This document shows positions 42,082 to 57,683 of a DNA stretch of 64,000 bases, piece after piece. The notes under the pieces are model-generated. The model saw nothing but the letters and a program-made list of their open reading frames with translations, was not told where the DNA came from and did no database searches. A program made the position numbers and the translations under genes. The stretch's first letter is position 1. Each line of letters opens with the position of its first letter. This DNA is from a virus, in IMG/VR virus record IMGVR_UViG_3300042905_004067, one strand, 5' to 3'.

Positions 42082-42121
42082 ATTATTCTCCTAGTATATG
42101 TAGTTTTTCATAAATACTGGG

Positions 42122-42838
42122 ATGAAGCATTTTAGCCTATATCTTCAAGAAGAGTCCTTATCATTAAAACAGCATGATACGCTCAATCCAAAGTTTTGGA
42201 CAAAGGATTCACTTAAACCAATAGTAAGAAAAAAACTATTAGAAATAGGCAAAACATGGGCAGAGTTTGCCAATATTCCAGACGAAGCAATCAAAGACAT
42301 AATATTCGTCGGTGGAAATGCAAATTACAATTATACAGAACATTCCGATGTTGATGTTCACGTTGTAATAGACAAAAACAAACTTCCAGATTGCCCTGAA
42401 GTACTAGAAGATTATTTTCAGGACAAAAAACAATTGTGGAGTCTTACACATAACATTCAAGTATATGCCCATGATGTTGAACTTTATGCACAAGACATGA
42501 CACTCAAGACTCCAAAGAATCAAGGTTCATTTAGTCTGTTAAAAAATAAATGGATAACAAAACCAAAGCAAGTTGAAGTCAAAATAGACGATGAACATAT
42601 TGGTAAAAAGGTACGAGAACTAACACACAGAATTCAAAACTTAATTTCATCGAATGCAAAAGACGAATCATTTAAGGCTCTCAAAACAAAAATAAAAAAC
42701 ATGAGAGCCGCTGGATTGAAACGATCAGGTGAATTTTCTTTTGAAAATCTAGTATTCAAAGAACTGAGAAACAGCGGCATACTAGACAAAATGAACAACT
42801 ACATTAAAACTAGAGAAGACAAAAAACTCAGTCTTTAA
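42122..42838 (+). CDS. Pol-beta superfamily nucleotidyltransferase with capsid-targeting leader
   Basis: MKHFSLYLQE leader; GGNANYNYTEHSDVDVHV..DVELY; CATAAATA upstream. Confidence 0.75.
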   Translation: MKHFSLYLQEESLSLKQHDTLNPKFWTKDSLKPIVRKKLLEIGKTWAEFANIPDEAIKDIIFVGGNANYNYTEHSDVDVHVVIDKNKLPDCPEVLEDYFQDKKQLWSLTHNIQVYAHDVELYAQDMTLKTPKNQGSFSLLKNKWITKPKQVEVKIDDEHIGKKVRELTHRIQNLISSNAKDESFKALKTKIKNMRAAGLKRSGEFSFENLVFKELRNSGILDKMNNYIKTREDKKLSL

Positions 42839-43214
42839 TGTGTTTGCTGATTAGTGTTGGTGCAACCAACTTGGTTTGTATGGTTCTTTGACCAGCAAAG
42901 TGCGCCTTAGCAAGGCGATGTGATCCATCCACTATATTACCAGAAGAATCCACATGAATGGGGTAACTCATGTCTGCTCTATCCACCCTAGCCATAAATG
43001 GTTCCGATGGTTTCTGTAATTGATCACCCAATCTACCCTCTTTTGTTCCAACATCTTGGTTGACACGAATCAAATCTTTGACTCGTCTTGTTTGATTTCT
43101 TGTTTGTGTTCCACGAATCAGAGTATCTACTGGTGCCACTCCTCTTTCGTCACCATAGAACTGACCTACAATTTTTCCCTTTGCTTCATTCAGATATTGA
43201 ATAAACGATTTCAT
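42828..43214 (-). CDS. ParB/Srx-like domain protein with capsid-targeting leader
   Basis: MKSFIQYLNE leader; ADMSYPIHV..IVDGSHRLAKA. Confidence 0.65.
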   Translation of the reverse strand: MKSFIQYLNEAKGKIVGQFYGDERGVAPVDTLIRGTQTRNQTRRVKDLIRVNQDVGTKEGRLGDQLQKPSEPFMARVDRADMSYPIHVDSSGNIVDGSHRLAKAHFAGQRTIQTKLVAPTLISKHIKD

Positions 43215-43537
43215 AAGTCGTAGTCTACTTTCTGAAACTTCGCGCCTTCCGGCAATTTTTTTACGAACTCATGAACTGCGTTACGAATATTTTCTTTGCT
43301 CGTCACACGCTCTGAAACCTCACCTTTTTCTGGGTGAGTATAAGTGACAGTTGCAGACCACTCTTGTTCTTCATTCAGAAACTGTTTGAAAGACATGATG
43401 TTTCTCTCTTCCTTCATATGTTTAAAGTATTCAACTTGACGAAGCCGTTTCACAGCACCAGCGCGAGTCGGAGAACAACCTAGGTTTCTACCCTTCTTAC
43501 TTGTAACGCAATACTGTGAGCCACGCTTTACGATCAT
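43211..43537 (-). CDS. Basic phage protein with internal capsid-targeting leader (possible second start at 43396)
   Basis: GRNLGCSPTRAGAVKRLRQVEYFKH then MSFKQFLNE. Confidence 0.55.
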   Translation of the reverse strand: MIVKRGSQYCVTSKKGRNLGCSPTRAGAVKRLRQVEYFKHMKEERNIMSFKQFLNEEQEWSATVTYTHPEKGEVSERVTSKENIRNAVHEFVKKLPEGAKFQKVDYDL

Positions 43538-44343
43538 TTTCTTTTCTTTTTTCCCTGTACTGTGAGAGTAATATCTCTAGCAGCCTCTTGATACGGTTCT
43601 CCATAAACAATATCATCATGCTTTCTTGGATTATAATTACCCATTTTACTTAGATTAATTGTCTTTCGTTTAAAATCTTTTGGATGTGGAAGATCTTTTG
43701 CAGTTTTCATTCTTGCCAAGACTTTTTTATTCATCCCAAGTTCTCTTAATCTTGTTTTTACATTTCTTACAGTTGACCATCCATCTTCTATGCCAGAATG
43801 TATGTCTTCATAATCAGCATGTTGATCCAAATTTAATCTCAGGTTTGGATGGTTCGGATGGGAAAAATACACAGCACTTGTTGAACGACTAGCCAACTCA
43901 CTTGATCTTCGGATTCTAACTGGTCGCATCTTGGCTAATCGCGCCCAGATAGATCTTCCGCCTTTTGTTTGTTGTTCTCCACTTTCTACTGTGCCAACTT
44001 TATCTGCGATCATAGCATAGACTTTAGGTACTAGATTTTTCACTAGTGCTTTTTTTCCACGATGGGCCGCAGTCATTGTAGGAAAGTCAATACGAATTGG
44101 TGAATTTCTTCCACTCCTTCTAATGTCAAACTGACCAACCTGTTTTCCACCATGTCGCACCGACACGATTTCGCCCGCGAGATCATCATCTTCGTGGTGA
44201 TGAACTTCATATGGTCCTATTCTCCCCAGTTTTGTGCTTTTTGATCTTGGTATTTTCGGAGAAACTGTATGCTCTCTTGCACCACCGCCATCTTGGTACT
44301 CTGGCATGTCCTCCGCAAGAAGATATTTTTTGAATCGTAGCAT
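43534..44343 (-). CDS. GNAT-like protein with capsid-targeting leader
   Basis: MLRFKKYLLAE; HRGKK..SGEQQTKGGRSIWARL; paralog of 58765-59436. Confidence 0.55.
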   Translation of the reverse strand: MLRFKKYLLAEDMPEYQDGGGAREHTVSPKIPRSKSTKLGRIGPYEVHHHEDDDLAGEIVSVRHGGKQVGQFDIRRSGRNSPIRIDFPTMTAAHRGKKALVKNLVPKVYAMIADKVGTVESGEQQTKGGRSIWARLAKMRPVRIRRSSELASRSTSAVYFSHPNHPNLRLNLDQHADYEDIHSGIEDGWSTVRNVKTRLRELGMNKKVLARMKTAKDLPHPKDFKRKTINLSKMGNYNPRKHDDIVYGEPYQEAARDITLTVQGKKKRK

Positions 44344-44951
44344 TAGTACTTTTTCTTTTGTTGGTTGCCACTCATTGGTTTTGATTGAGATTGAGGAGGA
44401 GGAAGTTCTGGTTTGAATGCAGGAACTTCAGATGCACTTCTTCCCATTGCTTCTGCTGCACCAGCCACCTGAGAACGAACAATGTGTCCGTGCAGATTTC
44501 GAAGTTTTCTTGACATATATGGATTGTTTAAACCAACAGAAGGTTTGCCAACCAAGGATCTATTAAATGAAACCGCATCTGCTGCTCTATTCATAAGAAC
44601 AGGATTTCCTCTAATACGTTCCATTCCTCCTTGTCTTACTCTTGAAGCAAGATCACCGAGATCATTCCACTTTTGAATATTCTTTGCCACAGGAAAGAGA
44701 TCTTTATGTGTGGTTCTCAGTGGATACTTAAACCCACTTTTGGCTTGGTTGATTTTGTCTATGTTAAGAGCAATGTCTTGTGCTTTTATTGATTGACCAC
44801 CAATATCAGCAGTCATTGCTCTCGCAGCCAGACGACCTTCTGCACCACTAATAGCAGTTTGAACATCCGGCGACCATCGGCGGTTCGACTGAGCCAATCT
44901 CATCGCTCTTCTTGCTTTTACTTCTAATAAAAAATCTTTGGATAATCTCAT
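44343..44951 (-). CDS. Basic putative internal head protein
   Basis: MRLSKDFLLE leader; first gene after TATAAATA. Confidence 0.5.
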   Translation of the reverse strand: MRLSKDFLLEVKARRAMRLAQSNRRWSPDVQTAISGAEGRLAARAMTADIGGQSIKAQDIALNIDKINQAKSGFKYPLRTTHKDLFPVAKNIQKWNDLGDLASRVRQGGMERIRGNPVLMNRAADAVSFNRSLVGKPSVGLNNPYMSRKLRNLHGHIVRSQVAGAAEAMGRSASEVPAFKPELPPPQSQSKPMSGNQQKKKY

Positions 44952-44959
44952 GGTAAATT

Positions 44960-44967
44960 TATTTATA
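44960..44967 (-). promoter_or_regulatory. T4-type late promoter TATAAATA
   Basis: Exact match 8 nt upstream of 44951. Confidence 0.75.
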
Positions 44968-45142
44968 GGGACTCCAATCTAGGGGTCCCCTACTGGGAGT
45001 CTCAGGGGTAGGGGAGGTAGGGGTAGGAGTCCCTTAAAGGATTTTTAGGGGGGAGTCTCATGGGTGGGAGTCCCATGTTCAGAAAGTCTTTAAGAATTCT
45101 TTGAGGGGGGCTTCGCTAGCGGGAGGCTCCAACGGGAGTCCC
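44968..45142 (+). repeat. G-rich array of GGGAGTCYC-like motifs
   Basis: Copies at 44968, 44982, 44995, 45026, 45051, 45066, 45121, 45134. Confidence 0.8.
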
Positions 45143-45278
45143 ATCGCTCCCTATACTGTTCGGACAGGAGCAAACTCACAGCAATGCATAACAATGCATA
45201 CGCTAAACACATGCTAGATTTGAGATGAAGTATGTGCTTCTCCCACGATTATCCCTAGTTTCCTAGATCGATATCCGC

Positions 45279-45307
45279 TTGCATTCAAGTGGCATTTCCA
45301 GTACAAT
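45279..45307 (+). promoter_or_regulatory. Early sigma70 promoter TTGCAT-N17-TACAAT
   Basis: Upstream of Gp88-like gene. Confidence 0.7.
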
Positions 45308-45335
45308 CTATGCACCAAACGAAAGGACTACTGCT

Positions 45336-46085
45336 ATGACTATCGCTCTCGCTCAACTTGCTCCCATTCACGCTCCCTGCGCTACCACCACGGACATCGA
45401 TCCGATTCATGACGGCTACGCACACAGTTACGCGGATCACCAACTCTGTGATGCATCGTGGGGTACGCTCGATGCTCTCACTGGCGGCTTGTCGTTGCCG
45501 TCGAAGATGCCGGGTCATTCGTTCTCGATCAGCGCGAAGCGTTGCAAGGTTGGCGCTGCGCTGCGCAAGGTCGCTGGCTCTACTTGCAGCAAGTGCTACG
45601 CTCTGAAGGGTCGGTATGTGTTTCCGAATGTGGCTGCTGCAATGGAGCGCCGGTATCAGAAGATGCGCTCTAACTCCACGGTGTGGGCTGCTGCAATGAT
45701 CGCCAGCATTCGTAAGACTGGCGATAAGCACTTTCGCTGGCACGACAGCGGAGACTTGCAGGGGATGAATCACCTCTTCGCCATCACCGTGATCGCGGAA
45801 GCCACTCCGTGGGTGCAGCACTGGCTGCCCACTCGGGAGTATGCGTTGGTGCGTGAGTATCTGCGCCAGTATCACCACTTCCCGGTGAATCTCACGGTGC
45901 GCGTGTCTGCGCCCATGATCGGGTCAGTCGCCAGTGAGTGGGAGAACAGCAGCAGCGTCGATGCTACTCGCACTCCCATGACTGCGTGGGTCGATTGCCC
46001 TGCGTCGAAGCAGGGAAACAAGTGCATGGACTGCCGCGCTTGTTGGGATAAGGATGTCGAAGTCGTCAACTACAAGAAGCACTAA
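45336..46085 (+). CDS. Gp88-like phage protein (Cys-cluster)
   Basis: SKMPG..C..CSKCYALKGRY..FRWHDSGDLQ..HWLPTRE..CPA..CMDCRACW; start MTIALA after GAAAGGA. Confidence 0.75.
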   Translation: MTIALAQLAPIHAPCATTTDIDPIHDGYAHSYADHQLCDASWGTLDALTGGLSLPSKMPGHSFSISAKRCKVGAALRKVAGSTCSKCYALKGRYVFPNVAAAMERRYQKMRSNSTVWAAAMIASIRKTGDKHFRWHDSGDLQGMNHLFAITVIAEATPWVQHWLPTREYALVREYLRQYHHFPVNLTVRVSAPMIGSVASEWENSSSVDATRTPMTAWVDCPASKQGNKCMDCRACWDKDVEVVNYKKH

Positions 46086-46107
46086 CTCTAACCAAAGGAC
46101 TCATACC

Positions 46108-46341
46108 ATGAGCAACAACACCAACAACGCTACTGCCAATCACGAACCCGGAGGCGATTATGTCTTCTACACTCCTCCCACCACTCCCGATGGTGATCGG
46201 GACTACCGTGCTGAGATCACTCGGTGGAAGGCGTACCGCGTGAAACTCGGTTCGATTGATCAATACCCCATCGATGCGCTGATCATCATCGACAACCTAC
46301 TCGATGCGCTCGATGCTGCGCGGAAGTCTCGGAATCAGTGA
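46108..46341 (+). CDS. Early hypothetical protein (paralog of 46691-46948)
   Basis: PP.TP.GDRD..IDNLLDALDAARK. Confidence 0.7.
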   Translation: MSNNTNNATANHEPGGDYVFYTPPTTPDGDRDYRAEITRWKAYRVKLGSIDQYPIDALIIIDNLLDALDAARKSRNQ

Positions 46342-46379
46342 TTCCGACAGTCTCAACCAAAACAGAAAGGACTCATACC

Positions 46380-46667
46380 ATGAGCAAGAAGAGCATTCTC
46401 AACAACTGGCGTCGTCGCTTCCGTTCGCTCTTGGATTCCACATTGTCCATCGAGTGTGTATTCTGCGGAAACAGTCTGATTGGCGACGGGCCCGCAACTC
46501 CCGTCATCTGCCTTGATTGTTTCTCGCATCCCGGTGTGATCTTGAATGATTGCACCATCTGCATGAACTGCGCCGCGGATGAGATGTCGTCCGGTACACT
46601 CGTCACCAAGACAACGCACCCCGATGGGTTCACTTGCGCGGAATGCTGCAAGGTTGTCACCGTCTAA
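46380..46667 (+). CDS. Early Cys-rich zinc-binding protein
   Basis: Four CxxC pairs; GAAAGGA SD. Confidence 0.65.
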   Translation: MSKKSILNNWRRRFRSLLDSTLSIECVFCGNSLIGDGPATPVICLDCFSHPGVILNDCTICMNCAADEMSSGTLVTKTTHPDGFTCAECCKVVTV

Positions 46668-46690
46668 CCCAAACGAAAGGACTCAATCAC

Positions 46691-46948
46691 ATGAGCAACA
46701 ACACCCAACCCCGTTATGAGTTCATCTACAATCCGCCTCTCACTCCTGCGGGCGACCGCGACTGGCGGAAGGAGCTTGATGTGTGGAAGCGCGGCCGCAA
46801 CAGCGGAAACGCACCGCTGGACATCACCACGATTGTCGTGATCGACAATCTGCTCGACGCGCTCGACGCAGCGCGAAAGGAGCGCGACGATGCGCGTTCG
46901 GCTGGAGCGTGGAAGTACATCGGAAACCCCAATGATCGCATCCCATGA
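46691..46948 (+). CDS. Early hypothetical protein (paralog of 46108-46341)
   Basis: IDNLLDALDAARK identical segment. Confidence 0.7.
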   Translation: MSNNTQPRYEFIYNPPLTPAGDRDWRKELDVWKRGRNSGNAPLDITTIVVIDNLLDALDAARKERDDARSAGAWKYIGNPNDRIP

Positions 46949-47014
46949 GGTGCGATTGTTGATAGTATTATTATCGGACTCAAAAACTTTTTGATTTTCC
47001 CCTGCTTTCCCCAC

Positions 47015-47043
47015 TTGCACCGATTCCCGTCTTCCGGTATAAT
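47015..47043 (+). promoter_or_regulatory. Early sigma70 promoter TTGCAC-N17-TATAAT
   Basis: ATG 9 nt after the -10 box. Confidence 0.75.
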
Positions 47044-47052
47044 GAAACGACT

Positions 47053-47697
47053 ATGGCTACCACCAAGTTCAACCCCACCTATCGTCCGTTCAAGACCTCG
47101 CACCACGCGATCATGGGCGCGGTCGATCACTACATGAGCGATGCGCCGCTGCGCTTCACCAGCGGAGGCGCGCAAGCGTCGTTCATTCGCAACAACGCCC
47201 GCGCGAATACGCCGCGTGAATACGGCATCAAGTTGTTTCCCAATGTTTCGCAGGCGTTCGCCGCGTACCAGCGTCAGAAGATTGCCGCCGACGCTGGCGC
47301 TGCTCCGCCGGTGCGCCGCATGGTGTGCTTCTCGCATCCCGGTATGGTGTACAATCGGGAGCAGGATCGGTATGTTCGCGCCACCGTCCTCAGTTGGGGG
47401 TATCAGACTTGCGTGGCGTACTCCATCGGTATCGAAGCGATGGAAGTGCCGTGGGACATGGAAGAGATGACGAATCCTCCCCTCAGCATGATCCCGGAGC
47501 GGCGTACTCGCGAGTTGTACAAGCTGATGCGTAGTCTCAGCACGGCTGGCACGCAGATCGACGGAAAGCCGCTCGGTACGATTCGCCGTCGTTCGCGGCG
47601 CATGGTTTACGATCTGCACCGTGACAACATCGGTTTCTGGCGCAAGCGCCCCGTTGTCATCGACTTCGGTTACCACATCGTTCAGGAGGCCTGCTAA
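47053..47697 (+). CDS. Protein kinase-like early protein
   Basis: YGIKLF (beta3 Lys), DLHRDNIG catalytic loop, VIDFG. Confidence 0.7.
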   Translation: MATTKFNPTYRPFKTSHHAIMGAVDHYMSDAPLRFTSGGAQASFIRNNARANTPREYGIKLFPNVSQAFAAYQRQKIAADAGAAPPVRRMVCFSHPGMVYNREQDRYVRATVLSWGYQTCVAYSIGIEAMEVPWDMEEMTNPPLSMIPERRTRELYKLMRSLSTAGTQIDGKPLGTIRRRSRRMVYDLHRDNIGFWRKRPVVIDFGYHIVQEAC

Positions 47698-47810
47698 TGA
47701 CAGAGACTCTGCTCTCTTTCGGCGTTTACTGCGTGATTGCGTTCTTCGTTCTCGCAATCTTCTTCGTCCTCTACATTCTCGCTCTCATTCTTTCGGAGGT
47801 AATCTCATGA
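47697..47810 (+). CDS. 37-aa single-pass membrane protein (MTETLLSFGVYCVIAFFVLAIFFVLYILALILSEVIS)
   Basis: Hand-translated; stop/start overlaps with both neighbours; AGGAGG upstream. Confidence 0.6.
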   Translation: MTETLLSFGVYCVIAFFVLAIFFVLYILALILSEVIS

Positions 47811-48184
47811 AGGTTTTCATCGTCAAGATCGACAACGGTAGTTCGACCGCTTGCCACGTTTTCAACAACGAAGCGGCCGCGAACGAGTTTCACGACAAGA
47901 TGAGCCGCCACTACGACGCGGTTGATCCCGAGACTTGGGTTCTCGCTCCGGAGGAGTGTGAAGTTCACGACGGAGTGGCAACCGCGCTCGTCAACGAGTT
48001 GGATGGCGAAGAGTTGCGGTACGAACCCGAATACTGCGACAACTGCGGTGTTCAGGTGTTTGCCACTTCACGCTACAGCGTTCCGATTCTCCCGGTGAAC
48101 ATCGCGTCTGCCAATGCGGGAGAGTCCGCGGTTCTTTGTCCTGAGTGCTGGCAGACGCACATCTGCAAGTGGAGGAAGAAGTAA
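47807..48184 (+). CDS. Early hypothetical protein with C-terminal zinc ribbon
   Basis: Start MKVFIV after GGAGGT; CDNC..CPEC. Confidence 0.6.
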   Translation: MKVFIVKIDNGSSTACHVFNNEAAANEFHDKMSRHYDAVDPETWVLAPEECEVHDGVATALVNELDGEELRYEPEYCDNCGVQVFATSRYSVPILPVNIASANAGESAVLCPECWQTHICKWRKK

Positions 48185-48327
48185 TGAAAATCCGAGTTCG
48201 TTTCGTGCATGATGCTCTTCGCGAAGGAGAGCGCCTGCGTCCCAAGACTTGGGGAAAGAAGGATCGCAATCCCCGCGCCGACCGTCGGCGTATCAAGCGA
48301 GCCATTCACAGAGGAGATTTCGAATGA
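48184..48327 (+). CDS. Small Arg-rich early protein
   Basis: MKIRVRFVHD..; GGAGG SD. Confidence 0.55.
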   Translation: MKIRVRFVHDALREGERLRPKTWGKKDRNPRADRRRIKRAIHRGDFE

Positions 48328-48617
48328 GCGCAATGAACCGCATGTCCCGTGTCATCACCTTCCGTATGCCGTCGGCGCCTGGATGGAAGGTGCAGTTCAA
48401 CATGAACGATCAGCACTTCACGATGATGCGTTTCGGTGAAGTGAAGGATCGTTGGCAGTTGGAACGCGAAGCCGATTGGCGTGGTCAGCGGCGCGATCTA
48501 GAACTGAACGAAATCGAGAACGAAGCGGAGCGCAAACTCCAGCTCGAGACACTTGCATGGGAACACGACCGGCATGCCGATGACGCCGATTTCACCGATC
48601 TCTACCCCAGCTACTGA
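48324..48617 (+). CDS. Early hypothetical protein
   Basis: MSAMNRMS; AGGAG SD. Confidence 0.55.
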   Translation: MSAMNRMSRVITFRMPSAPGWKVQFNMNDQHFTMMRFGEVKDRWQLEREADWRGQRRDLELNEIENEAERKLQLETLAWEHDRHADDADFTDLYPSY

Positions 48618-48728
48618 GGAGCCACAAAACCGATGAACATCATCTTGCGTCAACTGATGAAGGTTGCTACAATCATGGGGTACAAGTGGGAAACGTATCC
48701 CACCGACAACTCCAACAAAGGAAACCGA

Positions 48729-48971
48729 ATGACTGAGACTGACATGATTGTGAACACGTTCCGCGACTATCTGCGCCTCCTCTCTTCTAGCGTCCGAAAC
48801 GCTTCGGAGAGCAAGCAGCGCGACATTTTCGCCCGTGCTCGCACCGTCCGTCAGATCGCTCGTTCCGCCGGTATGCTCCCGCGTCTTGATCGCGCCATCG
48901 CGCACGACAAGACCACGAGCACCGTGTTCGTGAACAGCGACTTCAACTGGACGAAGTACGCGAACGCTTGA
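48729..48971 (+). CDS. Early hypothetical protein
   Basis: MTETDMIV after AAAGGA (alternative start 48633). Confidence 0.55.
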   Translation: MTETDMIVNTFRDYLRLLSSSVRNASESKQRDIFARARTVRQIARSAGMLPRLDRAIAHDKTTSTVFVNSDFNWTKYANA

Positions 48972-49063
48972 TCTCTCCCGTGTGTGTATGGGGAGGGAGT
49001 GCCGCTACTTCTCCCTCCCCGCACACGCCTCATCAAATGAGCCTTGATCAGAAAGACTTTGAT

Positions 49064-49279
49064 ATGGCAAACGGACGATACATCCTTGACTGGCGTAACG
49101 ACCCGCATTACTACTCGGCGGTGAATTTGGATCGGGATGTTCCCGATTACGATCCCGACGAGGATGAGGACGAAAACGAAGATTGGGAAGACCTGGAGGA
49201 CGACACACATGACGGTGGTAGCCATGATGAGTCCGAAGGCAACGATGATTGGTCTGGCCCTGACGAAGATCTAGACTGA
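49064..49279 (+). CDS. Highly acidic small early protein
   Basis: DYDPDEDEDENEDWEDLEDD... Confidence 0.55.
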   Translation: MANGRYILDWRNDPHYYSAVNLDRDVPDYDPDEDEDENEDWEDLEDDTHDGGSHDESEGNDDWSGPDEDLD

Positions 49280-49345
49280 CACCATCGGGAGCGCCGCGGG
49301 GCGCTCGCCCAATCCAAACAAACCTAGTGCATCTAGGCAGTCCCG

Positions 49346-49374
49346 CCCCCCTACTGCGAAGTGGGGGTTTTTTA
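49346..49374 (+). terminator. Intrinsic terminator
   Basis: CCCCCTAC-TGCGAA-GTGGGGG plus T-run. Confidence 0.7.
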
Positions 49375-49448
49375 TTTGTCCGTGTTGATAGTATTATTAT
49401 CGGACGTAACGTTATCGGACATGCGCCGTTTGCTTACGTTTTAGGGGG

Positions 49449-49477
49449 TTGACACGACCCCCCAGGTCCAGTACAAT
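49449..49477 (+). promoter_or_regulatory. Early sigma70 promoter TTGACA-N17-TACAAT
   Basis: Near-identical to 51703-51731; -35 lies inside a GGGGG..CCCCC inverted repeat. Confidence 0.8.
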
Positions 49478-49486
49478 GGGCGCACT

Positions 49487-50917
49487 ATGGCTACCGCTCT
49501 CTCTACCAAGCAGTCCGCGTTCGTTTCCGCTCTCGCCTCCATCACCACGATCTCGCCCGTGAAGCGCGCGGATCTCGTGGCCGCTGCCGCCAAGTGCGGT
49601 ATGGCGTGCCCTCCCGCGTGGATCGTCAAGGACACCGCCCGCAGTGCGGGTCGTGGCCTGTTCCACGTGCCGGAACTGAAGGGTGAGCAGATGGTGCTCA
49701 CGCCGGCTGCTGCTGCGCCTGCGCCTGTCGTTGCTCAGGCGGTGCGCGGTTCCACCCCAGTCATCAGCAGTGCTTCCGTGCTCGGGATGACCGGCGGCGA
49801 GCGCATGACGCTGATCCCCGACAAGATCGATACCTACGTTCCGTGGGGTCACTTCGCGTCGATTGAGTCGATCCTGCGTTCGCGGCTGTTCTCGCCCATG
49901 TTCATCACGGGTCTGTCCGGCAACGGTAAGACGACGATGGTGGAGCAGGTCTGCGCCAAGTTGAAGCGTGAGTGCTTCCGCGTCAACATCACCGCCGAAA
50001 CCGACGAGAGCGATCTGCTCGGTTCGTTCGGCCTCGTTGACGGCAACACCGTCTGGCAGGATGGTCCCGTCACGGTTGCGCTGAAGCGCGGTGCCGTGCT
50101 GCTCCTTGACGAGATCGATCTCGGCACGGAGAAGATCATGTGCCTTCAGTCCGTGCTTGAGGGTAAGGGCGTGATGATCAAGAAGATCGGCCAGTTCGTG
50201 CATCCGGCTGATGGGTTCACCGTCATCGCGACCGCGAACACGAAGGGTAAGGGCGACGACAACGGACGTTTCGCCGGTACTCGCATTCTCAACGAAGCGT
50301 TCCTTGACCGTTTCGACTTCACCTACGAGCAGTCGTATGCTCCCAAGGCGACTGAGAAGAAGATTCTCACCAAGAAGATGGAGAAGTTCGGCAAGATTGA
50401 CGAGAAGTTCGCAGAGAACCTTGTGCGGTGGGCGGAGATCATCCGTGCCACCTACGAGGAGAACGGGATTGACGAGATCATCACCACGCGCCGCCTGGAG
50501 GGCGTGTGCAAGGCGTTCGCCATCTTTGGCGACCGCATGGAAGCGGTGAAGATGTGCGTTTCCCGGTTTGACGAACTGACTCGCCAGGGTATGCTTGACG
50601 CTTACACCAAGGTCGACGCCGAGGTGAACCCGGTGAGCGCGACTCAGACCGCCGAGGAGGCGCAGGGTCCGCAGCCCTACGATGCGTCCAAGACCTACGC
50701 TGCTGAAGCGATCAACTCTGCGAAGGTTCTCTGGCTGATGGCGGCCAAGTACGAGGACCGGAACGATGTCAAGTCGGCGGGAGCGATGTGGGACCCTGCG
50801 AACAAGAAGTGGGGTATCTCGCCTTCCATGTACTGGTCCTCGCCTGCGACCTGGAACAAGTACGAGCCGCGTCCCGTTGACATGAACGGGCAGATCCTTC
50901 CCTCGTTCAACGCCTAA
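49487..50917 (+). CDS. MoxR/CobS-like AAA+ ATPase with C-terminal DUF5710-like domain
   Basis: GLSGNGKT, LLLDEID, ATANTKG, NEAFLDRF, ITTRRL; C-terminal VKSAGAMWDPANKKW. Confidence 0.9.
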   Translation: MATALSTKQSAFVSALASITTISPVKRADLVAAAAKCGMACPPAWIVKDTARSAGRGLFHVPELKGEQMVLTPAAAAPAPVVAQAVRGSTPVISSASVLGMTGGERMTLIPDKIDTYVPWGHFASIESILRSRLFSPMFITGLSGNGKTTMVEQVCAKLKRECFRVNITAETDESDLLGSFGLVDGNTVWQDGPVTVALKRGAVLLLDEIDLGTEKIMCLQSVLEGKGVMIKKIGQFVHPADGFTVIATANTKGKGDDNGRFAGTRILNEAFLDRFDFTYEQSYAPKATEKKILTKKMEKFGKIDEKFAENLVRWAEIIRATYEENGIDEIITTRRLEGVCKAFAIFGDRMEAVKMCVSRFDELTRQGMLDAYTKVDAEVNPVSATQTAEEAQGPQPYDASKTYAAEAINSAKVLWLMAAKYEDRNDVKSAGAMWDPANKKWGISPSMYWSSPATWNKYEPRPVDMNGQILPSFNA

Positions 50918-50990
50918 TGGCAGCCATATCAGCAGAAATCCTTCGGGATTTTTGTTGATAGTACTCCCCCTCTCTGATACAATCGACCCC

Positions 50991-51230
50991 ATGAACAGCA
51001 GCACCACCATCTCTGATTCACTCTCTCAACTTCGGACTCTTTCGAATCAAGATCCGAACTTCCAGTCCTATGTGTCGGTCGTTATGGCCGGCAGGATCAT
51101 CATGAGCCTGTCTCGTCTTGATCGTCAACTGTTCAGCGACGAAGAGATCAAGGAGTTTAATCTGATCGCTGATCGCGCCAGCCTGTCGGCTCGCATGTTC
51201 GCCTCCAACATCAACAACGACACTTACTGA
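50991..51230 (+). CDS. Early hypothetical protein
   Basis: TTGATA-N17-TACAAT promoter 7 nt upstream of ATG. Confidence 0.55.
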   Translation: MNSSTTISDSLSQLRTLSNQDPNFQSYVSVVMAGRIIMSLSRLDRQLFSDEEIKEFNLIADRASLSARMFASNINNDTY

Positions 51231-51233
51231 ACC

Positions 51234-51578
51234 ATGAATACCAACAACAACAATTCGTACCGTGGCAATGATTACAATCTCCTGAAGCCTTACCAGCAGG
51301 AGTTCATCCGAATGATCGCAAACTGGGCTTCAGTCAGCATGAAGACCACGATCACCGCAGACTTCGGATGGGATCGCTCTCTTCTTCGCGACATCGCGAT
51401 TTCGAACGGGATGAAGTGGGCGCCAGCCTGGATCGTGAAGGACAAGAATCGAAAGAAGGGACGAGGCTATTATATGGTTCCCGAGGTGTGTGATTACATT
51501 CTCTCCGTGATGCCTAACGAGAGCACCGAGCGGGATGCGGCTGTGGAATCCGCAGAGACTGAGCCAGTCGCCGTCTAA
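51234..51578 (+). CDS. Stand-alone homolog of the ATPase N-terminal domain
   Basis: APAWIVKDKNRKKGRGYYMVPE versus PPAWIVKDTARSAGRGLFHVPE. Confidence 0.65.
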   Translation: MNTNNNNSYRGNDYNLLKPYQQEFIRMIANWASVSMKTTITADFGWDRSLLRDIAISNGMKWAPAWIVKDKNRKKGRGYYMVPEVCDYILSVMPNESTERDAAVESAETEPVAV

Positions 51579-51702
51579 GGCACAAGCCAGTTTCCCATCT
51601 TTCAGGGGCAGGTCTTCACAGAGACCTGCCCCTTATCATTTGACGATTGTTGATAGTACAGTTATCGGACGTACCCCCGTTTTCTAGGTAGGTTTTAGGG
51701 GG

Positions 51703-51731
51703 TTGACACGACCCCCCAGGTCCTGTATAAT
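51703..51731 (+). promoter_or_regulatory. Early sigma70 promoter TTGACA-N17-TATAAT (perfect consensus)
   Basis: Exact consensus; ATG 7 nt after the -10 box. Confidence 0.85.
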
Positions 51732-51738
51732 GAACACT

Positions 51739-54195
51739 ATGGCTAAGCTTCCCACCGTCACTACCTCCACGCACAATCACGCGGCCGCGTCCGTCATGGC
51801 GCGCATTCTGTCGACCGAGAACATCTCGGTCGTCGTGAATCCGGCTGCGAGCACCGCATCGTTCGATCTCGCGAATCGCGTTCTGTATCTTCCCGAGTGG
51901 AAGGACATGAGCCGCAACGTGTACGACATGCTCATCGGGCATGAGATCTCCCACGCGCTGCACACTCCCGCTGACGGCTGGCGTTCGACTTGCGATTCGA
52001 TCAGCGGTACGACCGACACTTCCTCGCCTGAGTGGCGCACTGCGTCGCTCTACCTCAACGTGGTTGAGGATGCGCGTATCGAACGGCTGGTCAAGGACAA
52101 GTTCCCCGGCTTCAAGCGCGACTTCGTGACTGCGTACAACGAACTCGCCGCCAAGGACTTCTTCGGCGTGAAGAAGATCGACCTCAACACGCTCACGCTC
52201 CCGGATCGCCTGAACCTGTACTACAAGCTCGGCACCATCGGTTCGGTCGGTATTCGTTTCACCGCTGACGAGCAGCAGTTCATCTCTCGTATCGACGCTG
52301 CAAAGTCGTTCGATGAGATCTCGTCCATCGCTGCGGATCTCTACACCTTCTGCAAGGAGCAGCAGGCGAAGAAGCAGAAGCAGCAGCAGACGCCTACCGT
52401 TCCGAACGACGGCGACTCGTCGGACAACGGGAAGAACGACACGAAGGCGCCCGAGAGCAAGAAGGGCGAGAAGGCGCAGGACAAGGGTCCGGCGCAGAAC
52501 ATGAAGGGTAGCGGCGACAAGTCGGATTCGTCGGATCAGAAGGATCAGACTTCTGCTGCTGAGAGTTCGTCCGATGGTGACGAGCAGCAGGAACGCCCCC
52601 AGTCGCAGTCTCCGTCTGCCCCTGCGGCTGGAACTGGCGCTGCTCCGACGCCCATCACTCAGCAGGCGTTCAACGACGCGCTTCAGCAGAGCGTGAAGAA
52701 GCCCAATGCTTACGAAACCTCGGATCTCATCGCGCAGACCGAACTGGTTTTCCCCGATCTCTCCAAGGTCGTGATCGACTACAAGACGCTCGTGGCTGAC
52801 TCCAAGACCGATGCGCCTGGTTTCTTCAACCCGGTGAAGGCGTATGATCAGGAGTACCGCAAGAACATTCTCGCGGCCGACGAGAAGTTTGTTCGCGAGA
52901 GCAAGCGTAGCGTCGACCTGCTGATCAAGCAGTTTGAACTGCGAAAGGCTGCTCAGGTGTCGAAGCGCGCCGCGATTCGCAACACCGGCGTCCTTGACAC
53001 GGTTCGCATGACGAGCTACAAGTGGTCGGATGACATCTTCCGCCGCAACACGATTCTGCCGGAGGGAAAGAATCACGGCCTCGTCATGTACGTTGACTGG
53101 TCGGGTTCCATGTCCTGCAATCTGCTGTCCGTGCTTGAGCAGACGTATGTGCTCTGCGACTTCTGCCGTCGCGCAGGGATTCCGTTCGAAGTCTATGCGT
53201 TCACGACTCGTTCGTGGAGCACTGGAACCGAATACACTGCTGATCCTAGCACCGATCAGAACAATATGCTCGGCGTGTGGGGTAAGGATCGTGTCAGTTT
53301 TGATCGGTATCAGAACCCCTCCCCGAAGAACGGTAGCGGCGCGCGAACTCAGCCGGCGGCGCACTATGTGTTCTCGCTGCTGAACCTGTTCTCCTCGCGC
53401 ATGAACAAGCAGGAGTACATTCAGATGCGCCAGTTCACTCGCGCCCTGGCCAGTGTTTCGCACACGACCGGGTACATGGATCGCCCGACGCGGTGGGATC
53501 TCAGCGGCACTGCCCTTGACGAAGCAATCGTCAGCGCCATGCTGATGGTTCCCAAGTTCAAGGCGGACAACCGGCTCGACATCGTGAACACGGTGTTCCT
53601 CACCGATGGCGAAACGAGCATTCCGTACTGCGGAAAGCAGCTGATCGACCCCAAGACTCGCGCAGTCTATTCGACCGCCGAACTTGACCGCAACAACGCG
53701 GAACTGGAGCAGGGACGCAGCAGCCACGGTTCCTCCACCAACGTCCTGCTCCTCGCGTTCCGCGAGATCACCGGCAGCCGTGCGGTTGGTATGTACCTCA
53801 CCTCGCACCCCTCCATGCAGCCCTGCACCATGTTCCCGAAGCGTGTTGCGAAGCAACTTCCCATCTCTGAGCAGATTCTGATCGCGCGCGGACACAACAA
53901 GACCAGTACTTACTTCCGCACCGAAGTCATTCGTCACTCTGCCGCTGCGGTGCAGGACGATCTGATCAAGGAGTTCAAGGCGAACAACATGATCGTCACC
54001 GAACCGAACACGACAGGGTACGACGAGTTCTTCATCATCAAGTCCAACGTCAAGGTCGTTGGCGAGGACGAGTTCAAGAACGTCGAAGTCGGTGCGTCGC
54101 AGTTGAAGCTCAAGCGCGCTTTCGCCAAGTCGTTTGGTGATCGCAACAAGAACCGCACCCTCGTCAACCGTTTCATCGAACTGATCGCCCGCTAA
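51739..54195 (+). CDS. HExxH metallopeptidase-like plus VWA (CobT-like) partner of the MoxR ATPase
   Basis: GHEISH, NVVEDARIE, low-complexity linker, MIDAS DWSGSM..GTAL..FLTDGE. Confidence 0.88.
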   Translation: MAKLPTVTTSTHNHAAASVMARILSTENISVVVNPAASTASFDLANRVLYLPEWKDMSRNVYDMLIGHEISHALHTPADGWRSTCDSISGTTDTSSPEWRTASLYLNVVEDARIERLVKDKFPGFKRDFVTAYNELAAKDFFGVKKIDLNTLTLPDRLNLYYKLGTIGSVGIRFTADEQQFISRIDAAKSFDEISSIAADLYTFCKEQQAKKQKQQQTPTVPNDGDSSDNGKNDTKAPESKKGEKAQDKGPAQNMKGSGDKSDSSDQKDQTSAAESSSDGDEQQERPQSQSPSAPAAGTGAAPTPITQQAFNDALQQSVKKPNAYETSDLIAQTELVFPDLSKVVIDYKTLVADSKTDAPGFFNPVKAYDQEYRKNILAADEKFVRESKRSVDLLIKQFELRKAAQVSKRAAIRNTGVLDTVRMTSYKWSDDIFRRNTILPEGKNHGLVMYVDWSGSMSCNLLSVLEQTYVLCDFCRRAGIPFEVYAFTTRSWSTGTEYTADPSTDQNNMLGVWGKDRVSFDRYQNPSPKNGSGARTQPAAHYVFSLLNLFSSRMNKQEYIQMRQFTRALASVSHTTGYMDRPTRWDLSGTALDEAIVSAMLMVPKFKADNRLDIVNTVFLTDGETSIPYCGKQLIDPKTRAVYSTAELDRNNAELEQGRSSHGSSTNVLLLAFREITGSRAVGMYLTSHPSMQPCTMFPKRVAKQLPISEQILIARGHNKTSTYFRTEVIRHSAAAVQDDLIKEFKANNMIVTEPNTTGYDEFFIIKSNVKVVGEDEFKNVEVGASQLKLKRAFAKSFGDRNKNRTLVNRFIELIAR

Positions 54196-54206
54196 TAGGA
54201 GCAACT

Positions 54207-54401
54207 ATGACACTTCCCTACGAAGAGTATAACGCGATTCTTTCCTGCACCCGGTTCATGTATGATCTCATGGACCCGAAGCGCACTCCCGGAGTTCCCA
54301 AGTGGGTGCGCGTGGAGGCACGGCGCCGTGTGAAGCACATGCCGCTTGAACCGGTTCTGCTAGAGCGGTACAAGGACTTGCTTCCGAAACAGCCTCAATA
54401 A
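54207..54401 (+). CDS. Conserved small phage protein
   Basis: MTLPYE..TPGVPKWVR..KHMP; AGGAG SD. Confidence 0.6.
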   Translation: MTLPYEEYNAILSCTRFMYDLMDPKRTPGVPKWVRVEARRRVKHMPLEPVLLERYKDLLPKQPQ

Positions 54402-54498
54402 TCGGTACAAACAGTCTTAGCCCAAACGGGCCAGTCGGGATACATATCTTGACTGGCTCGTTTTTGTTTGGTACGATTGTTGATAGTAGGAGCACTCT

Positions 54499-55089
54499 AT
54501 GAAGGAATCCGAATTCATCCGCCTAGTCCGCGACGATCTCGCAAGCGAGAATGTAAATTTGATCATTGGTAGAGGAAAGCAAATCAACTGCGATGGTATT
54601 CGCGTCGATGGATACTTTAGCGATTACGCACGAGAACTTCGAGTAGCACGAGGATGTAAGCAATGGCTTGGCACTCTATGCCACGAATACGCCCACTTTC
54701 GTCAGTGGATAGAGGGATGCAAACACTATCAACAATCCACCAAAGCCATACAGATTATCGACACATGGTTCTCTGGAAAGGAATACTCCGAACGGGAACT
54801 GTCGAGAGCATTTCGACTCGTTCGCACGATGGAACGTGATGCCGAACGGAGAACTGCCGAAATGATCGAACGGTATTCTCTTCCCGTAGATCTGAATCTT
54901 TATATCAAAAGAGCAAACTGCTACATCTATGCTCACTTCATCATGGAGCGACATCGTAAGTTCTGGGCGTTCTCTCGCGACCCATTTCGTAGCAGAGTTG
55001 TTCTGAACCTCATGCCAAACGATTTTCGTTGTCAGTCCCATCACAAACTCCCACCTGACATCGACACAGCACTTGAATCCCTCGTCTGA
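54499..55089 (+). CDS. HExxH zinc metallopeptidase-like protein
   Basis: DGYF..LCHEYAHFRQW..MERDAE. Confidence 0.6.
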   Translation: MKESEFIRLVRDDLASENVNLIIGRGKQINCDGIRVDGYFSDYARELRVARGCKQWLGTLCHEYAHFRQWIEGCKHYQQSTKAIQIIDTWFSGKEYSERELSRAFRLVRTMERDAERRTAEMIERYSLPVDLNLYIKRANCYIYAHFIMERHRKFWAFSRDPFRSRVVLNLMPNDFRCQSHHKLPPDIDTALESLV

Positions 55090-55168
55090 TTGTTGATAGT
55101 ATATGCATATTATTCCATTGCATAGCATATTATTTCATTGAATAAATAATGGTATAGGAGTTTTCATT

Positions 55169-55462
55169 ATGCCGACTTATAATTATTCATGCGAATCCTG
55201 CAAGAAACTTTGGGAAGAAACACACACTATTGCCGAACGGGAATCCCCATGTTCGCTACCTTGTCCTCATTGCAAGAAGAAGAAGGTATTCAAGACAATG
55301 GAAGGATGCTTACCCGGTCTTGGCGCCGACAAAACTCTCACTCCCAACAAAGCATCTGGGGGACGCTGGAACGAACTCATGTCCAAGATCAAATCTGGTG
55401 CTCCCAAGAGGCTTCACAAGAATATTGACGGCACTGGCGGTGTCGGTCATCGTTGGAAATAA
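55169..55462 (+). CDS. FmdB-family zinc ribbon protein
   Basis: MPTYNYSCESC..CPHC. Confidence 0.8.
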   Translation: MPTYNYSCESCKKLWEETHTIAERESPCSLPCPHCKKKKVFKTMEGCLPGLGADKTLTPNKASGGRWNELMSKIKSGAPKRLHKNIDGTGGVGHRWK

Positions 55463-55778
55463 AACTCTGACAAAACCTGGATGTTTCAGTAAAACACTTA
55501 CAGGCTCGCTAGGAGTTCGCGGCTTGGCGGTGGCTTGGCGGTGAAACTGAGATATAGTGATAGGCTGTACAAAGCATAGAATGCTCTCGACAGAACTGCG
55601 TGGCTTTGCGTGATTTGGCGGCTTGCGGGATAGAATGCCACTTTACCCCCACATCCCCCCATATTTCCCCACATCTATTTACCCCATTCGTCCATACCCT
55701 GTCATTTTGACAGATTTAGTATACAGGCATTCCCTTCCCGTGATTACCAATGCCGAACGGGTGTCTTATCCTTGTGTC

Positions 55779-56222
55779 CTACCGAAATGGATGCTTCTCT
55801 ACCCGTACCAATGGTGTTTCTATCCCCTGTTGCTTCTGTATCTCTCCCCACTTTGCTTGAAAGATAGCATGATTCTTCTCTCCTCTTTCACCAGCATTGG
55901 TCTGATACTGAACCTGTGCGATCTTTGGGTTTGAACGAGCAAAATCAGCCACATGATCCATTGCTGTTCTCAATCTGGCAGATCTGACTTCCTTTGGTAC
56001 ATCAGGTGGTGCAACATCAGTCAACTCCCCTTTGGCATTTGGTACTTGAAAGCCCCAATAGGCTATTCCTTTTTTGGCATCTGTGTGTATTCTTGTATGA
56101 ACACCAGTATCCGAATCCCTATAGAAATGAGTAGAGATATGTGGTGTCTCTTTGTCTGAAGTGACAGAGACTAGATGCGGATGAGTTTCACTCTCTGAGA
56201 GGTATTGCCGAAAAGTGAGCAT
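55779..56222 (-). CDS. Capsid-targeting-leader protein
   Basis: MLTFRQYLSE leader identical to 57710-58228. Confidence 0.65.
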   Translation of the reverse strand: MLTFRQYLSESETHPHLVSVTSDKETPHISTHFYRDSDTGVHTRIHTDAKKGIAYWGFQVPNAKGELTDVAPPDVPKEVRSARLRTAMDHVADFARSNPKIAQVQYQTNAGERGEKNHAIFQAKWGEIQKQQGIETPLVRVEKHPFR

Positions 56223-56273
56223 GAAAATATGTAGTGTGAAGCCGAACGGGTGTCTCTACTCTGTAACCACCAA

Positions 56274-56308
56274 AGAAAAACCCCCTAGATGCTCTCTAGA
56301 GGGGTTAT
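56274..56308 (-). terminator. Intrinsic terminator
   Basis: ACCCC-TAGA..TCTAG-AGGGGT hairpin with A-run on + strand. Confidence 0.6.
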
Positions 56309-56330
56309 TCAATCTGTTTTTTAGTCTATC

Positions 56331-57305
56331 TTATTTCTTACGGGGGGTTCTCATTACCTTACCACCCTTGCCGTATAATGTTTTGGATCTTTTTTCACGT
56401 TGGTTTTGTTTTATCGCGTCGTTTAATGCTGTTCTCGCATCAATAAGATCATCAACGGAATCCGCGAATTCCATTGGCTCGGTGGCTGGTGATACTGTTG
56501 CTTTTTTACCATACATCGCGTTCCAAAGTGCGTTTGAACGTCTACCCAATCGGTTAACGTATTTGGTCCAATCTTTTATTTCAGTTTCCATCTCTGCTGC
56601 ACGTTCAGGAGTCTGTAAGTCTTCTTTCAGTCTTTTCTTCTTTGCTTTTGTTCCCACAATCTTTCCGCCGAGGCCATAAATCTTCGTGGGGTGTTTTCTT
56701 TCGCGTTCGGCTCTCGCTTCTGCCTGATCTTTTGCGGCTACCGCATCAACATAAGCATCAACGGAATCGGGGTAACTAGTATCATATGGATCTACACCGC
56801 CAAACCCTATTCTACCAAGATCACCAACGGTATTGACTTTGTCAACATCAACTCCATATATTTTTTTGTAGATAGCATCCGATCTCTTGCCTAATCTGGT
56901 CGCTTCTCGTCCAAGTCTTCTTACCACGCTGGCGGTCTCTGCTGCACGTTCAGGAGTCTGTATATCCTCTGTCACCGGACGAGTTCCGAGTGGTCTTTTA
57001 GTTGCTGCTTTGGGAAGTTGTCCTCTTTGAGCCATATCGACGGCTCCCGCCGGATCATCAAGATCAAGATCAAGATTTTTTTGGGAACGAGATAGTGGTT
57101 TTTCTGGTTTCACAACTGGATCATCAAGATCAAGCCGTAATTTTCCCACCCTGCGTTTACCTTCTTTAAGAGGTTCAGCACCTAAAATTTCTGTCATTTC
57201 TTGAACAATTGCTTTGAGTTGATTTAACTCATGATTGGCTTCCATGAGTTGTCGTTGAAGTTGATTCTTTTCGTTGATGAGTTTTTGTTGGTAAAAGTAG
57301 TCCAT
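56331..57305 (-). CDS. Putative internal head polyprotein with repeated modules
   Basis: MDYFYQQKLINE leader; EDIQTPERAAET / EDLQTPERAAEM duplicated modules. Confidence 0.6.
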   Translation of the reverse strand: MDYFYQQKLINEKNQLQRQLMEANHELNQLKAIVQEMTEILGAEPLKEGKRRVGKLRLDLDDPVVKPEKPLSRSQKNLDLDLDDPAGAVDMAQRGQLPKAATKRPLGTRPVTEDIQTPERAAETASVVRRLGREATRLGKRSDAIYKKIYGVDVDKVNTVGDLGRIGFGGVDPYDTSYPDSVDAYVDAVAAKDQAEARAERERKHPTKIYGLGGKIVGTKAKKKRLKEDLQTPERAAEMETEIKDWTKYVNRLGRRSNALWNAMYGKKATVSPATEPMEFADSVDDLIDARTALNDAIKQNQREKRSKTLYGKGGKVMRTPRKK

Positions 57306-57683
57306 TTATTTTCCTTTGTTTTTGCGAAGTCGATTGTTTCTTCTCAATAATCCCTCTATGTTCTTTTGTGTGCCTCTTGCACCAATCATTGCGCTCTTCA
57401 GTTCTTCGTCTGATGCTCCTGCCCACGCACCACCTCTTTTGTCTTGAGGTAGTGCCATTTGCCGCATCAATTCGGTTCTTGTCATGTGTGCGCCGCCGAG
57501 CATTGATTTGTTGTATGCTTCGTGACCACCTGGCGCGTCAAGATGAATGTCCATTTGATCCATTGCGGCCGAATCTATGCGATCTAATACCGCGCGTCTT
57601 TTTGGTGTGAGCCTATAGACTTCATCCAATTTCATTTGACGATATGCGTCAGCAACGGCTTTGATTTGTTTATTTGCATCCAT
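57306..57683 (-). CDS. Putative internal head protein
   Basis: MDANKQIKAVADAYRQMKLDE leader. Confidence 0.5.
   Translation of the reverse strand: MDANKQIKAVADAYRQMKLDEVYRLTPKRRAVLDRIDSAAMDQMDIHLDAPGGHEAYNKSMLGGAHMTRTELMRQMALPQDKRGGAWAGASDEELKSAMIGARGTQKNIEGLLRRNNRLRKNKGK

Follow-up and report, generated by a model that had tools for sequence, protein, structure and literature searches.

An old GC-rich gene island, putatively early and host-like in codon usage, in the AT-rich genome of a T4-like phage

The viral DNA considered here, a stretch of 64,000 nucleotides from the IMG/VR record IMGVR_UViG_3300042905_004067 (called the window throughout), carries a sharply bounded block of GC-rich genes, the island, within an AT-rich backbone. 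Together with a number of small proteins, the island encodes a CobS-like MoxR-class AAA+ ATPase, its VWA-domain partner and a GP88-family protein. It is old and syntenic in diverged relatives, and its composition has been maintained without drift from GC to AT. The explanation that we favour, and to which we give about an even chance, is that selection keeps the island, a resident early regulon, to a codon usage that is host-like and avoids A-ending codons, as the complement of an AT-rich genome that is served by phage transfer RNAs (tRNAs).

Profile matches place T4-type baseplate wedge proteins in the backbone (phrog_219, gp6-like, E 1.8e-83; phrog_438; phrog_232). The gp6 of the window shares just 28-29% identity with the gp6 of cyanophages and Methylophilales phages, and megablast of island and backbone against 50,697 phage records found no match, so the source appears to be an uncultured, deeply divergent T4-like myovirus. 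The content of guanine and cytosine (GC) in the backbone is about 0.33 over 1-44 kb and jumps to 0.53-0.62 across about 45.0-54.4 kb, a block of 9.4 kb. Gene by gene, the GC content of third codon positions (GC3) lies between 0.54 and 0.80 in all of 13 island genes, as against 0.13-0.25 in the structural genes, and the GC content of first and second positions (GC1 and GC2) is raised too, by about 0.13 and 0.06. The abrupt switch to C- and G-ending codons on which the original prediction was built is thus stronger than first claimed, and the genes are co-oriented as it had said, every one of them lying on the plus strand. Its long antisense shadow open reading frames (ORFs) are likewise present: three minus-strand ORFs (49412-51010, 51616-54204 and 46726-47757) were considered as genes and rejected as shadows, since both homology and the phase-specific GC content, with GC3 near 0.8 in the plus frames of both large genes, favour the plus strand. 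At the level of codons the island ends on the right at about 54.4 kb. The 'intermediate' GC content of 54.4-60.4 kb is mainly a GC1, that is, amino-acid, effect in minus-strand genes with a GC3 of 0.28-0.39, the exception being a second, small GC3-rich pair of genes at 59461-60421.

The codon signature of the island lies above all in A-ending codons, whose fractions are 0.01 for TTA and ATA, 0.02 for AGA and GTA, 0.04 for CCA and 0.05 for AAA, while T-ending codons persist (GCT 0.28, GGT 0.34, GAT 0.47). At fourfold-degenerate sites A falls from 0.39 to 0.04 in the island, about 10-fold, and T from 0.36 to 0.24, about 1.5-fold. The G34 tRNAs that read codons ending in C also read those ending in U, whereas codons ending in A need separate U34 tRNAs; depletion of A only is therefore predicted by tRNA-linked selection and not by a symmetric bias towards GC, and the A-depleted, T-tolerant pattern points to such selection. 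The window encodes nine tRNAs (Tyr-GTA, Gly-TCC, Ile-TAT, Leu-TAA, Asn-GTT, Arg-TCT, Glu-TTC, Lys-TTT and Leu-CAA), a set also kept in the relative G001. Six of the nine read A-ending codons, which bears out the earlier statement that the phage tRNAs mostly do so. The six codons concerned (UUA, AUA, AGA, AAA, GAA and GGA) make up 215 per 1000 in the structural genes, 174 in the ORFs of the tRNA cluster and 34 in the island, the phage tRNAs being cognate to codons that are rich in late genes and depleted in the putative early ones.

Two relatives, L001 (CobS 79% identical) and L002 (a 109 kb contig, CobS 69% identical), show how this composition has fared over time. Both have a GC island, with collinear orthologues running across both borders, and in the 109 kb contig the island is the only GC3-rich block. 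Within the island, the fourfold sites of the window and L001 are identical at a rate of 0.60 (0.32 expected at saturation), a turnover of about 40%, and their composition is unchanged (A 0.04 and 0.05, C 0.40 and 0.38, respectively). Identity with L002 is 0.42 (0.27 expected), and the L002 island is still poor in A at third positions (A3), at 0.14 against 0.33 in its flank. When changes were polarised with L002 as the outgroup, those from G or C to A or T numbered 12, and those in the opposite direction 28, on the branch leading to the window, with 15 and 21 on the L001 branch; new bases were A in 5 of 116 cases in the island and in 14 of 49 in the flanking genes of the same genomes. At synonymous sites the island has diverged less than its flanks, and at the protein level more, a combination that selection on synonymous sites would produce. 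The backbone lineage in turn is stably AT-rich, gp6 relatives at 59-61% identity having a GC3 of 0.15-0.24. Recent horizontal transfer that has yet to ameliorate was rejected on the grounds of synteny in both relatives, fourfold composition and polarised changes. A genomic island would be absent from close relatives, carry mobility genes and be ameliorating, none of which was found here; Pfam and PHROG profile searches of the window proteins gave no integrase or homing-endonuclease hits.

The roughly 13-16 genes of the island fall into about six transcription units, and the near-consensus sigma70 promoters announced for them are found upstream of the CobS gene (49449, 11/12 matches), the gene at 50991 (50955, 10/12 with an additional TG) and the VWA gene (51703, 12/12), with weaker ones at 45279, 47016 and 54449. 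Plus-strand island sites with at least 10/12 matches number three, against 0.27 expected (P ~0.003). Intrinsic terminators end units at 49348, 51604 and 54424. A promoter module of 44 nt is present twice (49435 and 51689), and the box TTGTTGATAGTA, usually followed by GTTATCGGAC, occurs in six copies (46953, 49379, 50952, 51644, 54474 and 55087) that precede island promoters; the two boxes likely act as an operator or an alternative promoter element marking a regulon. One copy of TTGTTGATAGTA in L001, at position 1430, lies outside the island. Only 7-9 nt separate the end of the -10 element from the ATG in four genes (47038-47055, 49472-49489, 50978-50993 and 51726-51741), a geometry that implies putative leaderless or near-leaderless mRNAs. 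The spacing of -35, -10 and ATG is conserved, along with the boxes, before the CobS and VWA genes of L001 and L002, forming a phylogenetic footprint. The late motif ATAAATA does not occur within the island, and is found 5-8 nt before the ATG of genes flanking it on both sides (41029, 42122, 44343 and 57710), whose GC3 is 0.21-0.37. The island units are in this respect arranged as T4-type early units are, with a conserved sigma70-type promoter at the start of the unit and no late motif.

Early timing in the window phage is probable by analogy with the T4-like cyanophage P-HM2, in which cobS (PHM2_136) and the upstream PHM2_135 are classed in the light as 'Early (A)', the earliest expression cluster, and in the dark as 'Mid (B)', among neighbours classed as Mid (C) (PMC5082946, S2 Table). 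PHM2_135 would be the peptidase, judging by synteny. In the window, credible genes with a GC3 above 0.45 all stand behind sigma70-like promoters, including those outside the island (36610, 59461 and 60050), with the sole exception of a Zn-ribbon gene (55169-55462, GC3 0.48), which has the late-type ATAAATA motif upstream. The idea that codon usage is partitioned by the time of infection, as first put forward, is partly supported, by the sigma70 promoters, the early cobS orthologue and the fall in cognate codons from structural genes to island; AT-rich genes behind sigma70 promoters speak against a neat division by time.

Under the explanation favoured here, the divergent T4-like myovirus would have inherited the block vertically, as a resident group of some six early units that the host's unmodified sigma70 RNA polymerase transcribes; many of these units would yield leaderless or near-leaderless mRNAs, and operator-like boxes would be common to them. 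Selection would keep the codons of the island host-like, with C- and G-ending codons preferred, T-ending codons tolerated and A-ending codons nearly excluded. The host's own tRNA pool would then suffice for the CobS-type MoxR ATPase, the VWA partner, GP88 and the small takeover-type ORFans, while the AT-rich remainder, late structural genes above all, is rich in the six codons named above and would draw on the phage tRNAs. The host would be GC-rich, and translation, rather than a property of the DNA, is probably the trait under selection.

Several observations weigh against this explanation. Genes of the tRNA cluster downstream of sigma70 promoters with 11-12/12 matches are mostly AT-rich (GC3 0.20-0.35), so that not all early units share the bias. 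Island spacers, in which A and T are similarly frequent, have 50% GC and those of the backbone 34%, which means either that there is a regional component or that GC-rich functional elements take up most of the spacers; and with GC1 and GC2 also raised, part of the shift is not synonymous-codon selection. Among cultured phages, the elevation of the CobS and VWA genes is mild in S-PM2 and S-B64 and absent in HTVC008M, Syn19 and P-TIM40. Because cultured cyanophages on GC-rich Synechococcus show little or none of it, a GC-rich host alone would seem insufficient for a strong island.

The spacers and the first two codon positions are what a regional force acting on the DNA itself would explain, be it GC-biased gene conversion or a recombination hot spot next to the iteron array on the boundary, or selection for GC-rich DNA around early promoters; we consider such a force unlikely as the main cause. 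The rise in GC1 and GC2 is as expected of a regime of about 58% GC, but conversion or mutational bias should deplete A and T alike, and on the coding strand they fell to very different degrees, new substitutions to T outnumbering those to A by 28 to 5. Spacer GC content fits a regional force too, yet the GC3 of about 0.72 lies far above the 0.50 of the spacers, and these are full of functional GC-rich hairpins and boxes and hence no neutral reference. In the version concerned with promoters, GC-rich surroundings would set off the few true sigma70 sites and would spare the incoming early region from silencers or nucleases that target AT-rich DNA. This agrees with the 44 chance sites of at least 10/12 in the AT-rich backbone, as opposed to only three in the island, each at a gene start; that the two most conserved genes carry the highest GC3 counts against a regional force. 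The border itself is marked by a conserved array of GGRGTCYC motifs, a G-rich, non-coding stretch of 175 bp in which every motif contains GANTC and whose motif is absent from the rest of the 64 kb. The array is kept at the same border in L001 (6195-6402, 7 copies) and L002 (5855-6630, 13 copies), and could serve as an origin or an insulator or as an array of protein-binding sites.

Import of an old module from a GC-richer T4-like lineage, with its composition mainly ancestral, is rather improbable as an account of the island, and it could explain the origin of the composition and not its maintenance. The neighbours of the window on the CobS tree (L036/L062, L027/L024/L021 and L028) do have flanks of 0.45-0.53 GC, but ancestry alone cannot hold a GC3 of 0.8 through the observed fourfold turnover without GC-to-AT drift, and the backbone lineage, by its gp6 relatives, has been AT-rich for at least as long. 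The order of the genes (CobS, then VWA) and their location are unlike those in Kyanoviridae, whose pair is placed between gp46 and gp45, and GP88 is otherwise known from unrelated phages; against this, mobility genes are lacking and a search of 185,579 species genomes for a cellular donor of CobS found none that was close, only three mis-binned phage fragments in metagenome-assembled genomes.

Ordinary translational selection on highly expressed genes, whatever their timing, with CobS and VWA simply abundant, has a low probability in our view. In S-PM2 the major capsid gene gp23 (GC3 0.41, A3 0.20) and CobS (GC3 0.38, A3 0.15) are similarly mild in bias, and in the relative with the 109 kb contig gp23 is somewhat raised, at 0.38 against about 0.20. 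That value is nevertheless all that the top late protein reaches, when the island genes of the same relative have 0.54-0.61 and those of the window up to 0.80, and expression level alone was rejected as the driver on this account; the bias is common even to tiny island ORFans, and baseplate and other late genes adjoining the island are without it. As for a chimeric assembly or foreign DNA inserted very recently, the abrupt step at both borders would suit it, but its probability is negligible and it was ruled out, given that other assemblies cross both junctions (L141, over window positions 43812-60917 at 99.994% identity, and L143, over 44433-55638 at 100%, each from another sample, with the 155.7 kb contig L142 spanning 39487-50972 at 100%), that the exact CobS protein is found on 12 contigs from at least 8 samples, and that the same island, with no sign of amelioration, is found at the corresponding site of relatives whose proteins are 55-86% identical.

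The recurrence of the bias was surveyed in 80 viral contigs bearing CobS, with the GC3 of the CobS and VWA genes set beside the background GC3 of each contig. The two are correlated overall (r = 0.89) and are equal up to a background GC3 of about 0.27. Above that, the pair exceeds the background by 0.15-0.39 in many contigs, examples being L024 (0.83 against 0.45), L014 (0.68 against 0.33) and L009 (0.67 against 0.36). Close relatives may differ, L008 having 0.44 where L009 and L014 have about 0.67. On a quick IQ-TREE phylogeny of CobS the window falls inside a clade of 23 members, mostly of high GC3 with low-GC3 members nested among them. High GC3 occurs in other clades as well, at least seven changes of state are forced by well-supported branches, and the cultured phages form a separate clade of low GC3. 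A search for a cultured analogue with the CobS of the GC-richer lineage L024 matched only ordinary cyanophages. It is possible, though we hold it only tentatively, that such 'two-compartment' genomes, with an immediate-early block actively kept at host-like codons, devoid of those that require U34 tRNAs, around leaderless CobS and VWA genes and an AT-rich rest dependent on phage tRNAs, represent a general and repeatedly evolved strategy, in which CobS and VWA would be a takeover machine of the first wave rather than a cobalamin 'auxiliary metabolic gene'.

The features of the island and of its surroundings are collected in Table 1. Several of the ORF starts listed by the program are in fact -35 hexamers, and the corrected starts are 45336, 46108, 46380, 46692, 47807, 48324, 49037, 50991 and 51739.

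Table 1. Features of the island, its borders and related regions of the window (aa, amino acids; promoter scores as matches out of 12 consensus positions)
Feature	Coordinates	Strand	Details
AT-rich tRNA cluster: 9 tRNAs, permuted tmRNA, small ORFs	27863-37730	-	Several sigma70-type promoters of 11-12/12, mostly with 16-nt spacers
Late-type promoter motif TATAAATA	44960-44967	-	8 nt upstream of AT-rich gene 44343-44951
GGRGTCYC motif array, 7 copies	44968-45142		At the AT/GC boundary, between the leftward late-type promoter and the first island operon
GP88-family protein, 249 aa	45336-46085	+	GC3 0.70, A3 0.04; PF17338 88.9 bits (cut-off 24.4), E 5.9e-25
Three small ORFs (46108-46341, 46380-46667, 46692-46948)	46108-46948	+	GC3 0.63-0.70; first and third are paralogues
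Operator-like box TTGTTGATAGTA..GTTATCGGAC and promoter TTGCAC-17-TATAAT	46953-47043	+	-10 ends 9 nt before ATG 47053
ORFan operon (214, 37, 125, 47, 97, 112 and 80 aa)	47053-49279	+	GC3 0.54-0.76; orthologues in L001/L002 39-62% identical
Intrinsic terminator	49348-49367	+	8 bp stem, then T-run
Operator-like boxes and sigma70-type promoter TTGACA-17-TACAAT (11/12)	49379-49477	+	-10 ends 9 nt before the CobS ATG
CobS-like MoxR-class AAA+ ATPase, 476 aa	49487-50917	+	GC3 0.80, A3 0.02; phrog_249 E 2.8e-105
Two small genes (50991-51230, 51234-51578) behind promoter TTGATA-17-TGnTACAAT (10/12)	50955-51578	+	Second gene resembles the N-terminal module of CobS
Terminator (51604-51633), operator-like boxes, promoter TTGACA-17-TATAAT (12/12, 51703-51731)	51604-51731	+	-10 ends 7 nt before ATG 51739
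VWA-domain partner of CobS, 818 aa	51739-54195	+	GC3 0.78, A3 0.04; phrog_459 ('peptidase') E 1.1e-168
64-aa ORF, then strong terminator (54424-54463)	54207-54463	+	GC3 0.68; right end of the island at codon level
Transition genes	54499-55462	+	GC3 0.48; 196-aa ORF behind a 9/12 promoter and box; Zn-ribbon protein 55169-55462
Second GC3-rich pair	59461-60421	+	GC3 0.55 and 0.61; sigma70-like promoters 9/12 and 11/12

The gene content is of phage type, as anticipated, with GP88, an AAA_5/MoxR-type ATPase and its VWA-type partner. For the GP88 gene, the call of the Joint Genome Institute (JGI) gives the same 249 aa and an agreeing annotation, and a Shine-Dalgarno-like AAAGGA and a weak TTGCAT-17-TACAAT promoter (45279-45307) lie upstream. 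Among the small ORFs that follow, about 515 bp between the paralogues 46108 and 46692 are deleted in L145, a contig of another sample, as compared with window positions 46326-46841, which indicates recombination between the two paralogues. About ten small island ORFans had no significant family match in Pfam (E up to 1), PHROGs or PADLOC. The 214-aa ORFan (47053-47697) ends in DLHRDN...IDFG, resembling the catalytic-loop and DFG motifs of kinases; a kinase-like reading found no backing from profiles, none of the Pfam kinase models giving a match up to an E of 1.

CobS matches AAA_5 (PF07728) with 70.6 bits against a cut-off of 22 (E 1.7e-19), has intact Walker A (GLSGNGKT, residue 142) and Walker B (VLLLDE, residue 204) motifs, and carries an additional N-terminal module as well as a C-terminal DUF5710-like tail (E 1.2e-4). 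As to a cobaltochelatase function, no CobN partner was seen in the window, and the name 'porphyrin biosynthesis' attached to CobS is only an annotation. The 114-aa protein encoded at 51234-51578 shares a module (..APAWIVKD..GRG..VPE..) with the CobS N-terminus (49487-49800). The VWA protein, labelled 'peptidase' in cyanophages, has a metal-ion-dependent adhesion site (MIDAS) motif, DWSGS (residue 453), conserved in S-PM2, Syn19 and HTVC008M. No Pfam VWA or CobT_C match rose above its cut-off (CobT_C 17.1 bits against 21), and the putative assignment to the VWA family rests on the PHROG profile and the MIDAS motif.

In the AT-rich tRNA cluster, sigma70-type promoters of 10-12/12 precede the tRNA genes and the gene for a transfer-messenger RNA (tmRNA) at 27812, 28408, 35965, 36988, 37363 and 37775 on the minus strand, mostly with 16-nt spacers; these and the island promoters, with their 17-nt spacers, may be two promoter or temporal classes. 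Only one gene of the cluster is clearly rich in GC3 and poor in A3 (36610-36879, minus strand; 0.47 and 0.09), and a 12/12 sigma70 promoter, its spacer 16 nt long, lies 81 nt upstream of it. The phage-encoded tmRNA (27863-28115, minus strand) is of the permuted, two-piece kind (Rfam RF04321, 73 bits against a gathering score of 47), with a tag ending in ...ANELAMAA, and its homologue in the relative G001 (L132, 15506-15851) is permuted according to ARAGORN. Alphaproteobacteria, some Betaproteobacteria and picocyanobacteria typically have tmRNAs in two pieces, and by this analogy the permuted tmRNA may serve as a lead to the host, no more. The gene psbA, another potential clue to the host, was not found in the 109 kb or 45 kb contigs of the relatives.

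A partition of codon usage between early and late genes was reportedly described in T4 itself by Cowe and Sharp in 1991. In phages more broadly, synonymous codons differ between early and late genes, and the tRNAs that a phage encodes fit the codons of genes expressed later (Mioduser et al. 2017, PMC5683454). The idea of an early/late codon partition is thus already published; what is new is an extreme, bounded and conserved island, its link to CobS and VWA, and its recurrence. The published partitions are statistical tendencies across a genome, whereas the window shows an extreme difference (GC3 0.8 against 0.17) with sharp borders, which extends to the spacers and to the amino acids encoded and has been kept in diverged relatives. 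T4-like cyanomyoviruses of low GC content supplement GC-rich hosts with tRNAs of AT-rich anticodons (Limor-Waisberg 2011, PMC3152331; Zborowsky 2025, PMC11726456), and in GC-rich Synechococcus limiting host Leu-TAA and Arg-TCT tRNAs block translation of the UUA- and AGA-rich genes of T4-like cyanophages (PMC11726456). The window resembles them as an AT-rich T4-like genome with Leu-TAA, Arg-TCT and similar tRNAs; theirs, however, is a strategy of the whole genome, and the cultured cyanophages examined have little or no GC3 island at cobS and peptidase. The combination of a MoxR-class AAA+ ATPase with a DWSGS VWA protein is shared with Kyanoviridae and pelagimyophages (S-PM2 p119/p120, HTVC008M, P-HM2 PHM2_135/136), where the two genes are adjacent and, in P-HM2, early to middle. 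The pair of the window differs from these in its inverted order, with CobS first, in the two small genes between, in lying away from the gp46/gp45 replication cluster, in the added N- and C-terminal modules of CobS, and in a GC3 that is 20-40 points higher than in the cultured phages. The abrupt discontinuity of about 9 kb and the atypical codon usage are those of a classical, horizontally acquired genomic island, from which the block differs in being syntenic in diverged relatives, free of mobility genes and of amelioration, and built around core genes typical of T4-like phages.

If the explanation favoured here is true, one phage genome need not have a single composition, and selection can hold a block of kilobases apart for long, in this case at 20-25 GC points and 55-60 GC3 points from the rest. 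This would affect calls of horizontal transfer and of chimeras that are based on composition, as well as the reading of phage tRNAs, and in host prediction from k-mers or codons the island and the backbone would indicate different hosts. It would also recast the pair of cobS and 'peptidase', long a puzzle and nearly universal in marine T4-like phages, as an early MoxR-VWA machine under unusual translational constraint.

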